The notes below the pieces were generated by a model. The model did no database searches, had not been told where the DNA came from, and saw nothing but the letters and a program-made list of their open reading frames with translations. A program made the position numbers and the translations under genes. Shown here piece after piece: positions 14,068 through 27,558 of a stretch of DNA of 28,500 nt. Origin of the DNA: an uncultured Lachnospiraceae bacterium. Lineage in GTDB: Bacteria; Bacillota; Clostridia; Lachnospirales; Lachnospiraceae. The stretch is from NCBI GenBank assembly GCA_902783095.1, contig CACZPX010000271.1, positions 1 to 28,500 on the forward strand. Direction: 5' to 3'. Positions within the stretch are counted from its first letter, which is position 1, and each line of letters begins with the position of its first letter.

Positions 14068-14333
14068 TCCGCGCATCCTGCTTCGACATGCTGCACCACC
14101 CGTTACCTGTCCTGCGGACTCAGCCCAGGCGCCCTCGCGGCACATGGAAGGTTCTGCTTAGTGCTGCTTCGTTCCCGACCTGACACGGTTCACAGATTCC
14201 CATTGCGCAAGACCCAAGCCTCAACACCCGCAAAAACAGGGCTGCGGCAACACAGACAAGCCTCGGCAGGATATCACCCCTGCTGTAGCGGATTGCAGGT
14301 ACAGGGCACCGCTATCTCCCCGGCTGCGCGGAT
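14068..14333 (-). ncRNA. ffs: Large bacterial SRP RNA (scRNA, Alu plus S domains)
   Basis: Alu motif GGGGAGATAGCGGTGCCCTGTACCTGCAATCCGCT; S-domain TCAGGTC-GGGAAC-GAAGCAGC; terminal helix TCCGCGCA/TGCGCGGA; usual position upstream of dnaX. Confidence 0.96.
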
Positions 14334-15876: not shown

Positions 15877-15985
15877 AGGACAGCGGGAGGACAGCGGGGA
15901 CGGTCCTCAGTGTCATCACGAGGACAGCGGGGACGGTCCTCAGTGTCATCATATGAGGACAGGAAGGACCGTCCCCGTGTCTTCA
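15877..15985. repeat. REP-like cluster 1 (forward, forward, inverted; core GGGGACGGTCCT)
   Basis: AGGACAGCGGGGACGGTCCTCAGTGTCATCA at 15888 and 15921 (33-bp period); inverted unit 15954-15985. Confidence 0.85.
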
Positions 15986-21422: not shown

Positions 21423-22808
21423 ATGATGAATACCAATATAAAGAACGAGATACCCTATAAGATCTACCTCACCGAAGACGAGATGCCCAAAGCCTGGTAC
21501 AACCTGCGCAGCGCGATGAAGAATAAACCCGCGCCGCTCTTAAATCCCGGCACCGGCCTGCCCATGACCGCTGCGGAGCTGGAGGGGGTGTTCTGCGCGG
21601 AGCTTGTGGCGCAGGAGCTGGACAACGACACGCCGTATTTTGAGATCCCGCAGGAGATCCGCGACTTCTACAAGATGTACCGCCCTTCGCCCCTGGTGCG
21701 CGCCTACTGCCTGGAGGAAAAACTCGGCACGCCCGCGCACATCTACTACAAGTTTGAGGGCAACAACACCAGCGGCAGCCACAAGCTGAACTCTGCCATC
21801 GCACAGGCCTACTACGCCAAAAAACAGGGGCTTGCGGGCGTCACCACCGAGACCGGCGCCGGCCAGTGGGGCACCGCGCTGTCCATGGCCTGCGGCTATC
21901 TGGGACTGGACTGCAAGGTATACATGGTGAAGGTAAGCTACGAGCAGAAGCCCTTCCGGCGCGAAGTGATGCGCACCTACGGCGCCTCCGTGACGCCCTC
22001 TCCGTCCGATACGACTGCGGTCGGCCGCAAGATCCTGGCGGAGAATCCGGGTACCACCGGCAGCCTCGGCTGTGCCATCAGCGAGGCCGTGGAAGCCGCC
22101 GTCTCCACGCCCGGCTACCGCTACGTACTGGGCAGCGTCTTAAACCAGGTGCTGCTGCACCAGAGCATCATCGGTCTGGAGACGCAGGCCGCGCTCGATA
22201 AGGTCGGCGTAAAGCCGGACATCATCATCGGCTGCGCCGGCGGCGGCAGCAACCTGGGCGGCCTGATCGCCCCGTTCATGCGCGACAAGATCAACGGGGA
22301 CCTGGATTGCCGCATCGTGGCGGTGGAACCGGCCAGCTGCCCCAGCCTTACGCGCGGCGTCTACGCCTACGATTTCTGCGACACCGGCATGGTCTGTCCG
22401 CTGGCCAAGATGTACACGCTGGGCAGCAGCTTTATCCCCGCGCCCAACCACGCCGGCGGCCTGCGCTACCACGGCATGAGTTCCATCCTGTCGCAGCTGT
22501 ACGACGACGGCCTGATGGAAGCGGTGTCCGTGCCGCAGGTGGAGGTCTTCAAGGCGGCGGAGGAATTTGCCCGCGTGGAGGGCATCCTGCCCGCGCCGGA
22601 AAGCAGCCACGCCATCAAGGCGGCCATCGACGAGGCCTTAAAGTGCAAGGAGACCGGCGAGGCCAAAAACATCGTATTCGGCCTGACCGGCACCGGCTAC
22701 TTTGACCTGGTGGCCTACCAGAAATTTCACGACGGCCAGCTGGACGACTACATCCCCACCGACGACGACCTGGCAAAGAGCCTGGCCAAGCTCCCGCACC
22801 TCGGCTGA
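21423..22808 (+). CDS. trpB2: Tryptophan synthase beta chain type 2 (TrpB2)
   Basis: YKFEGNNTSGSHKLNSA (PLP Lys), TETGAGQWG, GCAGGGSN, HAGGLRYHG, PAPESSHA; 461 aa, TrpB2-type length. Confidence 0.93.
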   Translation: MMNTNIKNEIPYKIYLTEDEMPKAWYNLRSAMKNKPAPLLNPGTGLPMTAAELEGVFCAELVAQELDNDTPYFEIPQEIRDFYKMYRPSPLVRAYCLEEKLGTPAHIYYKFEGNNTSGSHKLNSAIAQAYYAKKQGLAGVTTETGAGQWGTALSMACGYLGLDCKVYMVKVSYEQKPFRREVMRTYGASVTPSPSDTTAVGRKILAENPGTTGSLGCAISEAVEAAVSTPGYRYVLGSVLNQVLLHQSIIGLETQAALDKVGVKPDIIIGCAGGGSNLGGLIAPFMRDKINGDLDCRIVAVEPASCPSLTRGVYAYDFCDTGMVCPLAKMYTLGSSFIPAPNHAGGLRYHGMSSILSQLYDDGLMEAVSVPQVEVFKAAEEFARVEGILPAPESSHAIKAAIDEALKCKETGEAKNIVFGLTGTGYFDLVAYQKFHDGQLDDYIPTDDDLAKSLAKLPHLG

Positions 22809-22888
22809 GGACGCGGGTGAGGACGCGGGGACGGTCCTTCCTGTCCTCATTGTGAGTGAGGACACGGGGACGGTCCTTTCTGTCCTCA
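22806..22888. repeat. REP-like cluster 2 (partial plus two forward 32-bp palindromic units)
   Basis: TGAGGACRCGGGGACGGTCCTTYCTGTCCTCA at 22818-22849 and 22857-22888. Confidence 0.85.
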
Positions 22889-22911
22889 AAATTCCGACGT
22901 CTGCGCTACCC

Positions 22912-22950
22912 TGTCATCCTGAGCGGAGCAGCAGCAGAGCCGAAGGATCC
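22912..22950 (+). repeat. Single arm of a TGTCATCCTGAGCG...GAAGGATC-type palindromic repeat
   Basis: Sequence resembles a widespread bacterial REP-like family; no partner arm in window. Confidence 0.5.
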
Positions 22951-23012
22951 ATAACAGATTGTCAGGAGGCACTACTCCCATGCCGCAGCCGCGGCGCCTC
23001 CTTGCGATACCC

Positions 23013-23045
23013 GCAGCCGGCCTCTCCTCGCCGGCTGCACTTTTT
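23013..23045 (+). terminator. Terminator of trpB2 transcript
   Basis: GCAGCCGGC-CTCTCCTC-GCCGGCTGC-ACTTTTT. Confidence 0.75.
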
Positions 23046-23051
23046 GCCCTA

Positions 23052-23080
23052 TTGCATTTCCCGCTGTCCCGCTCTATAAC
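23052..23080 (+). promoter_or_regulatory. SigA-type promoter of putative antitoxin sRNA
   Basis: TTGCAT-17-TATAAC with no plus-strand protein gene directly downstream. Confidence 0.7.
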
Positions 23081-23086
23081 GTGCAT

Positions 23087-23172
23087 AACAAGACAGCCGA
23101 AAGGTGAGCATCCACCTGCCCCGGCAAACCAACGAAAGCCGTCAGCTCACAGCAGGGTCCGACGGCTTTGAT
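23087..23172 (+). ncRNA. Putative type I antitoxin sRNA (~85 nt)
   Basis: Own promoter; hairpin AGGTG/CACCT; terminal stem AAAGCCGTC/GACGGCTTT; antisense to the 3' end of the toxin ORF. Ends are approximate. Confidence 0.6.
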
Positions 23173-23249
23173 CTATGATTGACATTCAAAATACCGACAA
23201 CGATCAACCCGAAAGTCAATATGATCATCAGAATCTCGTAATCACTCAC
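23142..23249 (-). CDS. Putative holin-like type I toxin, 35 aa (MSDYEILMIILTFGLIVVGILNVNHRSKPSDPAVS)
   Basis: Not in ORF track. GTG start with SD AGGAGGT 6 nt upstream; single TM helix; N-term S-x-Y-E pattern as in the putative holin-like toxin (Hol_Tox) family. Confidence 0.75.
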   Translation of the reverse strand: MSDYEILMIILTFGLIVVGILNVNHRSKPSDPAVS

Positions 23250-23413
23250 AGAACCACCTCCTCCGCAAGACTCGGATCGGGTGCAAGCACGTCCCCGGCT
23301 GCCCGGGTAAACACATTACAGGGAGCAAAAGATAAGTTGAACGAAAGCAGAAGCTTTTCTATGCAATATAATATAACGGGCATCTGTCAATGTGTAGTAC
23401 AGTATCTGTTTTG

Positions 23414-23476
23414 CGAAGACAGTAAGAACCGTCCCTGCGTCCTCTGAGGACAGTAAGGACCGTCCCCGCGTCCTCA
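23414..23476. repeat. REP-like cluster 3 (two inverted units)
   Basis: 23445-23476 is the reverse complement of 22818-22849 with 1 mismatch; 23414-23445 is a degenerate copy. Confidence 0.85.
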
Positions 23477-23515
23477 CAATCTTTCCAAGCGGAGCATATG
23501 CCTTAGTTACTTGCA

Positions 23516-23544
23516 TTGACAAAAAGGCCTGCACGCCGTAATAT
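23516..23544 (+). promoter_or_regulatory. SigA-type promoter of aor operon
   Basis: TTGACA-17-TAATAT. Confidence 0.8.
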
Positions 23545-23597
23545 CAATGCCAGATGATCCTTTGTTTTTGTCGAAAGCTTACCGAAGGAGCGCACTT

Positions 23598-27480: not shown

Positions 27481-27558
27481 CGGGGACGGTTCTTGAGGTC
27501 CAACTGGCACTTCAGAACCGTCCCCGAGATTCGCTGGCACTGCAGAACCGTCCCCGAG
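27481..27558. repeat. REP-like cluster 4 (forward, inverted, inverted; core GGGGACGGTTCT)
   Basis: CGGGGACGGTTCT at 27481; AGAACCGTCCCCG at 27514 and 27544 (30-bp period). Confidence 0.8.

Follow-up and report, generated by a model that had tools for sequence, protein, structure and literature searches.

The trpB2-aor spacer of the window analysed here (the whole 28,500-nt stretch of DNA) contains a predicted type I toxin-antitoxin module (Hol_Tox/TxpA kind), with two forward REP units (22818-22888) on one side and two inverted units (23415-23476) on the other. The module and the REP arrays, the latter presumably spread by a RAYT transposase, probably reached this hypervariable spacer of a rumen Lachnospiraceae genome independently of each other, the module being a neighbour of the repeats and not their cargo. 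Facing arrays across 0.1-1.8 kb are normal in this genome and enclose housekeeping genes too; we therefore regard the module as adjoining the REPs and not as carried by a cassette. An apparent cargo-carrying miniature transposon is in this case explicable by the ordinary habits of REPs, and whether the same brackets enclose housekeeping genes can serve as a test for cargo look-alikes. The features of the spacer are as follows:

22808-22818, plus strand: partial REP unit, starting within the trpB2 stop codon (TGA, 22806-22808), member of an inverted-repeat pair
22818-22851, plus strand: forward REP unit 1 (nhmmer E 2e-11; 0 mismatches to the pattern; DNA hairpin of -6.4 kcal/mol)
22857-22888, plus strand: forward REP unit 2 (nhmmer E 4e-11; hairpin of -7.4 kcal/mol)
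22908-22958, no strand assigned: one unit of a second, short repeat family unrelated to REP, CCTGTCATCCTGAGCGG...GAAGGATCC
23013-23045, plus strand: intrinsic terminator, 9-bp GC stem and T run
23052-23080, plus strand: putative promoter of the antisense (antitoxin) RNA, TTGCAT, 17 nt, TATAAC
23087-23178, plus strand: predicted antitoxin sRNA of about 92 nt, with a 5' nested hairpin and a terminator hairpin
23142-23249, minus strand: putative toxin ORF, 35 aa, GTG start, a small membrane peptide of the Hol_Tox/TxpA-like kind
23250-23320, minus strand: toxin 5' UTR with Shine-Dalgarno sequence GGAGGAGGTGG and -10 box TGTAAT (plus-strand ATTACA, 23315-23320)
23415-23445, minus strand: degenerate inverted REP unit (nhmmer E 3.4e-7; 3 mismatches to the 27-nt pattern, 5 to the 30-nt core)
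23445-23476, minus strand: inverted REP unit (nhmmer E 8.9e-11)
23516-23544, plus strand: aor promoter, TTGACA, 17 nt, TAATAT

The positions of the REP units and the agreement of the outer REP arms (31/32) had been given in the original prediction and were reproduced. Its 525-bp insert was also recovered with all of its contents, namely the toxin ORF, the antisense RNA with a promoter, the terminator and the second-repeat unit, the distance between the inner REP units being 526-527 nt. Four matches to the 30-nt REP core were found in the window at up to 3 mismatches, compared to 0 in 100 shuffles. Elsewhere in the window, forward and inverted units were said to sit close together; those near 15952 are real, while those at 27481-27556 proved to be weak core matches (nhmmer E 1.9-32). 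The stretch 23445-23476 is 94% complementary to 22856-22888 and a RAYT gene is present in the genome, so that the two arms may be recognised by its product as terminal inverted repeats. The terminator at 23013-23045 is unchanged across three strains and most likely ends the trpB2 transcripts. The insert also contains two plus-strand ORFs (70 and 90 aa), which were taken as spurious; Pfam returned no match for either.

The identity of the insert as a type I Hol_Tox module, which had been proposed earlier, was supported by homologues, conserved signals and a covarying sRNA fold. The window peptide scores 18.4 bits against Pfam Hol_Tox, under the cut-off of 23.3, and an exact look-up of its 35 aa returned nothing on record. 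Homologues of the peptide, with identities of up to 63%, occur in 37 of 300 genomes of the family, and one of them passes the Hol_Tox cut-off with 28.1 bits. The homologues share conserved signals, namely a Shine-Dalgarno sequence, a terminator located at the stop codon and a promoter for the convergent sRNA. In the window copy the family's TAG stop has changed to AAG, adding 8 codons (from 27 to 35 aa); strains L068 and L069 also carry an intact ORF. The -10 box of the toxin was assigned by aligning the stretch upstream of the ORF with its counterparts in 27 homologues, in which the box is TATAAT; the combination TACACA-17-TATTAT (23396-23368), delivered by a promoter scan, was dropped in preference for the homologous TGTAAT box. 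Likewise, the -10 box of the antisense promoter lines up with a conserved TATAAT of 27 homologous loci.

At its terminator hairpin the predicted sRNA reaches into the 3' end of the toxin ORF, and it would thereby overlap the toxin mRNA. Compensatory changes were observed in 15 of the 20 consensus pairs of its fold in a 29-sequence alignment, and the window copy folds likewise; a search for Rfam families gave no credible match to the sRNA. It appears that a type I toxin-antitoxin family extends across the Lachnospiraceae, with an antisense RNA that is supported by covariation and has no Rfam entry. A chromosomal module of this family, of about 300-350 bp, would encode a small minus-strand membrane peptide together with an antisense RNA (about 90 nt) convergent to it. 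Like RatA on txpA, this RNA would pair with the toxin mRNA over its 3' end and terminator and in this way prevent synthesis of the toxin. In the relative G027 the module is present in three tandem copies. The GC content of the window module is 48%, against 60.6% for the genome, which places it at the 2.4th percentile of 350-nt windows.

The annotation "holin-like toxin" has been linked to the TxpA family, where sRNA and toxin mRNA overlap at the 3' end of the latter (Fozo et al., 2010, PMC2887945). With txpA/ratA, Hol_Tox (PF16935) and EF3263 of E. faecalis (PMC2887945), the window module shares a stand-alone location in an intergenic region, a small peptide that is hydrophobic and has a basic C-terminus, and a predicted convergent sRNA (about 100 nt) over the 3' end of the toxin mRNA. 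It differs from this type in its GTG start, the lost stop codon, a -10 box with G as second base, a weak T tract 3' of the terminator, a peptide under the Pfam cut-off and an sRNA with no Rfam family.

The repeats are a true REP/REPIN family with a cognate RAYT, as the original prediction held, on the grounds of family copy number, doublets and one RAYT gene in the genome. At up to 7 mismatches, 69 REP units were counted in the 68%-complete MAG, versus 0 for five shuffled cores, while nhmmer returned 92 units in 51 clusters, nearly all of them between called genes. The unit is a hairpin-forming imperfect palindrome; its consensus contains no GTAG, and CGTC/GACG occurs within the unit and not as a 5' head. 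Short doublets form perfect hairpins with the same variable base on both sides. Among 21 "+-" clusters, the arms share the variable base in C34, C108, C230, C21 and C98, among others, and the doublet of C65 forms a perfect 36-bp hairpin (-50.8 kcal/mol, z -14). The RAYT gene matches Y1_Tnp (PF01797) with 43.8 bits, over the cut-off, carries the HVHLL and Y...QNP motifs, and reaches 64.3 bits against the NCBIfam RAYT model, for which the cut-off is 80. Its count as a single gene is provisional because the MAG is 68% complete. It is flanked by REPs in the order "+ + (936 nt) - -", and its product, a Y1/HUH enzyme, presumably spreads the REP units. The family was absent from the 7 other species of the genus; in a scan of species representatives it was found in just 4 other MAGs, all lacking aor, and a REP 24-mer had 0 matches in JGI metagenomes.

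A full REPIN/RAYT system is documented here in one rumen Lachnospiraceae species. The systems of the cited papers belong to Proteobacteria, namely E. coli, Pseudomonas and Stenotrophomonas (Nunvar, 2010, PMC2817692; Bertels and Rainey, 2011, PMC3116915; Ton-Hoang, 2012, PMC3333891). Common to them and to the window system are short extragenic imperfect palindromes, inverted hairpin doublets with matching arms, a single Y1/HUH transposase gene between inverted REPs, and a lineage-specific family with units located shortly 3' of stop codons. The window system is distinguished by its host (Lachnospiraceae, Bacillota), by a RAYT that has a C-terminal helix-turn-helix tail and falls below the NCBIfam cut-off, by the lack of an evident GTAG head, and by seven loci with facing arrays on either side of whole genes.

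These seven loci place the toxin-antitoxin bracket in its genomic context. All seven pairs of neighbouring clusters lying 100-2500 nt apart consist of a pure forward cluster followed by a pure inverted one, where random placement would give 0.18, and their spacing is 0.1-1.8 kb. The facing arrays enclose the RAYT gene, the toxin-antitoxin module, murB-whiA, pyrF-pyrD-pyrK, two AhpC/TSA genes, a gene for an HI0933-like flavoprotein and a 135-nt gap, meaning that ordinary chromosomal genes are contained in four of the seven. The toxin-antitoxin bracket matches the RAYT locus in its layout and in the orientation of the gene enclosed. Of 12 forward arrays, 10 lie 0-30 nt 3' of a rightward gene's stop codon, and the forward array 9 nt past the trpB2 stop occupies the usual place for this REP family. 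This 3'-end rule explains the forward-then-inverted polarity only partly. The inverted array departs from it because the next gene, aor, points away; a partnership with the forward array accounts for it better than a separate arrival does. This, the likeness to the RAYT locus and the part of the polarity that goes beyond the 3'-end rule count against our preferred reading. Such strict polarity across whole genes could bear on how RAYTs place REPs.

The comparison for the trpB2-aor spacer was made on ENA contigs, which fell into just two classes, of about 98% and 84% nucleotide identity, with none between. The bracketed insert was present at the same site in two other strains and in run contigs (four runs, each from a different study), which over the region were fragmented and of 2-5x depth. 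Strains differ in the number of REPs, in the number of second-repeat units and in the aor leader. Specifically, a third REP unit is added at the inverted array (23445-23476) in L069, and the second repeat consists of two tandem units at the 22908-22958 site in L068. This second repeat is the sole multi-copy part of the insert, with 8 more copies in this MAG (G000) and 17 in the sister genome G001. In the sister lineages, whose aor is about 84% identical at the nucleotide level, trpB2 and aor are adjacent and their spacers of 218 or 322 nt hold other repeats; neither the module nor these REPs were found in them, and the whole spacer differs, not the bracket alone. Homology with the sister species restarts at the aor promoter (23516-23544), and the aor -35 box TTGACAAAA is kept in L064-L067. 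The trpB2 gene does not adjoin aor in the genus representatives, which lack the REPs, and the empty-site test failed there.

Beyond this site, no second copy of the insert turned up in G000 or among the related genomes searched (60, or 360 in the overall tally), nor did it match plasmids or phages; a module-specific 29-mer had 0 matches in JGI metagenomes. In all samples of the same species the REP-bounded unit was present, and neither a further copy nor a loss bounded by the terminal repeats came to light.

Taken in this way, a fast-changing trpB2-aor spacer would have gathered two kinds of selfish DNA independently. A species-specific REP hairpin, dispersed by a single RAYT (Y1/HUH) transposase, would have settled in two tandem arrays, the forward one behind the trpB2 stop and the inverted one on the far side of the module. 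It is possible, but rather unlikely, that an older mixed "+ + - -" REP cluster between trpB2 and aor acted as an insertion hotspot and was later split by the module together with about 160 nt to its left. Mixed clusters do exist between co-directional genes (4 of 24), the inverted array lies behind no gene's 3' end, the low GC of the module fits a foreign origin, and a recombination tract in strain L069 stops exactly at the REP array, so that the array acts as a mosaic junction. However, an empty cluster, for which the original prediction had suggested comparing strains, was seen in no strain or run, the sole joint across the insert in run contigs being a paralogous doublet on contig C253. Moreover, the arms of the bracket differ at the variable base, unlike those of true doublets, and the sister species have neither REPs nor module at the site. 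Type I modules are not known to bring insertion machinery with them.

The mobile cassette of the original prediction would be a REP-bounded non-autonomous element, moved by the RAYT in trans, with the module as its addiction module. The genome's cognate RAYT fits such an element, and so do the inverted REP ends, which resemble those of the RAYT unit. We consider this extremely unlikely, given that the insert is single-copy, occupies the same place in every sample and was found nowhere else in the genomes, metagenomes, plasmids and phages searched, and that essential genes lie inside identical brackets. Homologous modules also lack such flanks, as inverted repeats were absent from all 27 homologous toxin-antitoxin loci of other genera that were checked; this, and the absence of the REP doublet from sister species without the module, are the outcomes that the prediction itself had named as refuting its proposal. 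Furthermore, REPtrons apparently do not transpose as a unit (PMC3333891).

The "+ + (minus-strand gene) - -" layout shared with the RAYT locus would also agree with a former REPtron, in which a second RAYT copy between the arrays was lost and the module now stands in its place. In E. coli, tnpA-REP has been precisely excised with the flanking BIMEs kept, or replaced along with the BIMEs by hicAB (PMC3333891). Such a history is nevertheless very unlikely here, since neither tblastn (best E 0.68) nor blastn detected a RAYT remnant in the insert and the sister species have no RAYT at the site. In addition, RAYTs are normally single-copy. Facing REP arrays might, finally, form RAYT-accessible or recombination-prone brackets that preferentially capture or retain small selfish modules such as toxin-antitoxin loci, but we hold a recurrent association of this kind to be quite unlikely.

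Independent accumulation remains our preferred reading. Among known systems, the yafL-fhiA site of E. coli, where hicAB takes the place of the REPtron in clade B1 strains, resembles the window locus in that a toxin-antitoxin system and REP/RAYT compete for one intergenic site (PMC3333891). At yafL-fhiA, the BIMEs were lost with the transposase gene (PMC3333891), whereas in the window the REP arrays flank the module; hicAB is a type II system, whereas the window module is of type I. As a side observation, preferential capture by REP brackets would fit both the polarity seen at all seven loci and this hicAB/REPtron swap.

Low-GC toxin-antitoxin DNA and RAYT-spread REP arrays probably accumulated independently in the hypervariable spacer between trpB2 and aor. 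Re-examination of this spacer bore out the original prediction as regards the bracket of facing REP arrays, the naming of its parts, the coordinates of the REP units and the 31/32 match between them. The two REP arms are 94% complementary, and the REP core gave zero matches in shuffled sequence (window and genome controls). Outside the toxin-antitoxin module, the insert comprises 160 nt with one unit of a second repeat family and a strong terminator. The window is the complete 28.5-kb contig C271 of the MAG G000 (68% complete, 1.85 Mb, 60.6% GC), which the names of proteins and contigs assign to a rumen Lachnospiraceae. The locus is laid out as follows:

22806-22808: trpB2 stop codon, within which a partial REP unit begins
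22818-22851, + strand: forward REP unit 1, imperfect palindrome of ~32 nt
22857-22888, + strand: forward REP unit 2, imperfect palindrome of ~32 nt
22908-22958: second-repeat unit
23013-23045, + strand: strong terminator
23142-23249, - strand: toxin ORF (35 aa), starting at GTG behind a strong Shine-Dalgarno sequence
23415-23445 and 23445-23476, - strand: inverted REP units
23598: aor start

The repeat system is REPIN/RAYT, a known kind. A profile search of G000 revealed 92 REP units grouped in 51 clusters (69 units at <=7 mismatches), the most frequent cluster (21 cases) being a forward unit, a gap of 4-14 nt and an inverted unit. The single variable base is identical between both arms of such doublets, which fold into perfect long hairpins, as on contig C65 (36 bp, -50.8 kcal/mol, z -14). 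Doublet form, sharing of the variable base between arms and hairpin fold are the REPIN signature (PMC3116915). The family is absent from the genus's seven other species representatives, and a scan of 185,579 species representatives located it elsewhere at five loci only, in four other rumen Lachnospiraceae MAGs. The sole Y1_Tnp gene in this 68%-complete MAG is the RAYT:

G000:C20:4132-4887, - strand: RAYT gene (Y1_Tnp), 251 aa

The protein carries the HVHLL and Y...QNP motifs, exceeds the cut-off of the Pfam model and scores 64 bits against the NCBI RAYT model (cut-off 80), its closest RAYT relative being 41% identical. Units of the same REP family as in the bracket flank the gene as '+ (54) + [936 nt] - (1) -', which is the REPtron layout (PMC2817692, PMC3333891). 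An extra C-terminal helix-turn-helix tail of ~50 aa (L003:1111-1866, G000:C20) lies outside the NCBIfam RAYT model (146 positions) and is matched weakly by excisionase and IS21 HTH models.

Facing arrays are the usual layout in G000. All seven pairs of neighbouring REP clusters 100-2500 nt apart consist of a pure forward array and then a pure inverted array; if the 51 clusters were placed at random, 0.18 such pairs would be expected (P = 5e-5 for at least four). The order holds even across 0.1-1.8 kb of genes. Examples in G000 are:

C20:3977-5085
C50:3725-5200
C101:553-2184
C135:1930-3802
C245:4135-5913

Inside the seven pairs lie the RAYT gene, the toxin-antitoxin module, an HI0933-like flavoprotein gene, pyrF-pyrD-pyrK, two AhpC/TSA genes, murB-whiA and a 135-nt gap. 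Since such brackets hold ordinary, partly essential chromosomal genes, their contents cannot all be cargo. With genes called by a GC3-based method, whose calls were checked on the window, 10 of 12 forward arrays stood 0-30 nt past the stop of a rightward gene, and inverted arrays stood right ahead of a leftward gene's 3' end in 9 of 13 cases. This rule, sense orientation behind gene 3' ends, accounts for only part of the polarity. The bracket's forward array, 9 nt past trpB2, fits it, while the inverted array breaks it because aor points away.

Judging from its sequence, the module is a type I toxin-antitoxin system of the known TxpA/Hol_Tox kind. The toxin ORF scores 18.4 bits against Pfam Hol_Tox, under the 23.3 cut-off. 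Searching 300 Lachnospiraceae genera in six frames retrieved homologous peptides in 37 genomes, and one of these peptides exceeds the cut-off (28.1 bits). The entire module is kept across 27 fetched homologous loci, with a toxin-side TATAAT box, a 5' UTR of ~60 nt, a 27-aa peptide, MSTYEEF...LLIVAILNYTHKK, and a terminator hairpin starting at the toxin stop codon. The opposite strand also has a TATAAT box, after which the start of the RNA is conserved. Fozo et al. (PMC2887945) connect the 'holin-like toxin' annotation with the TxpA family, in which the sRNA overlaps the toxin mRNA at its 3' end; the convergent architecture seen here agrees with this. The antisense strand forms two hairpins in a 29-sequence alignment, with compensatory changes in 15 of 20 pairs; the antisense RNA of the window copy has the same predicted fold and matched no Rfam family.

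The window copy departs from the family consensus at five places: the toxin -10 box is TGTAAT, the start codon is GTG, AAG stands in place of the TAG stop, which lengthens the toxin ORF by 8 codons and takes it into the terminator, the T tract 3' of the terminator is weak, and the sRNA -10 box is TATAAC. This copy may be attenuated. The ORF is unbroken in all three strains, and the toxin on L069, a contig of another strain, has additional I9N and I20V changes. The module's GC content (48.4%) falls at the 2.4th percentile among 350-nt windows of G000. In the relative G027 (L051, C119:110562-111267) the module occurs in three tandem copies at ~310 nt spacing. The conserved toxin 5' UTR (window 23288-23305) holds CCGGGGGACGTG, similar both to the REP core CGGGGACGG and to the GGGGACGTT repeats of the sister species; given the high GC content of the genome, chance may account for the likeness.

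The second-repeat unit is the only multi-copy part of the insert within G000, and searches of 60 relatives, JGI metagenomes, plasmids and phages turned up no copy of the module DNA. Two ENA contigs of same-species strains (L068 and L069, 98% identical) have the same bracket architecture in the same place and differ from the window in forward-unit spacing; among strains, second-repeat units number 2 or 1 and inverted REPs 3 or 2. Logan contigs of four sequencing runs, drawn from four studies (cattle, sheep and other gut samples), also carry the insert nearly unaltered; one of the runs may be the source of the MAG itself. A contig joint that apparently skipped the insert was rejected, as it is a paralogous doublet at contig C253. 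In L069, the DNA from the REP-array end to the aor start codon (491-672, versus window 23477-23594) is unrelated and the first aor codons are altered; the aor leader has been replaced, with a recombination junction lying at the REP array.

In sister lineages (aor 88% aa, ~84% nt), trpB2 still adjoins aor across a spacer of 218 or 322 nt, in which neither the module nor these REPs were found and own short repeats occur instead. The spot behind trpB2 draws a different repeat family per lineage. On the sister-lineage contigs, short repeats with a GGGGACGTT core stand right after the trpB2 stop (L064:1070-1130, L065:187-240, L067:3679-3730), and a palindromic GGGGATATTTCC family is also present in L065 and L067.

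Under independent accumulation, RAYT would spread the REP arrays and the low-GC module would gather separately, both ending up in the trpB2-aor spacer. Insertion of the module into a pre-existing '+ + - -' REP cluster is a doubtful but viable alternative, since the bracket's inverted array is off the placement rule. It is unlikely that the site is a former REPtron whose RAYT has since been lost, a history comparable to that of E. coli strains that lost tnpA-REP by excision or carry hicAB in its place (PMC3333891). The original prediction had taken the module for cargo of a cassette or, alternatively, the REP doublet for an insertion hotspot; the cargo reading is left unsupported by single-copy DNA at a fixed site and by the ordinary, partly essential genes in like brackets. 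Neither flanking inverted repeats of ~20 nt or more nor this REP was found at any of the 27 homologous loci, and sister lineages without the module are also without the REP doublet; both observations, named beforehand by the original prediction as refuting, argue against a cassette, and its mobilisation by RAYT is very improbable. Among the papers searched, none connects REPs to type I toxin-antitoxin systems, and those on REPIN/RAYT mention toxin-antitoxin systems in general terms only.

The second repeat family, CCTGTCATCCTGAGCGG...GAAGGATCC, is common to G000 and the sister genome G001, where at least 7 units follow one another in tandem, one every ~50 nt (C169:3743-4065, L012/L014). Finally, the window encodes a bacterial large SRP RNA at 14069-14331 on the - strand (Rfam RF01854, 190 bits).
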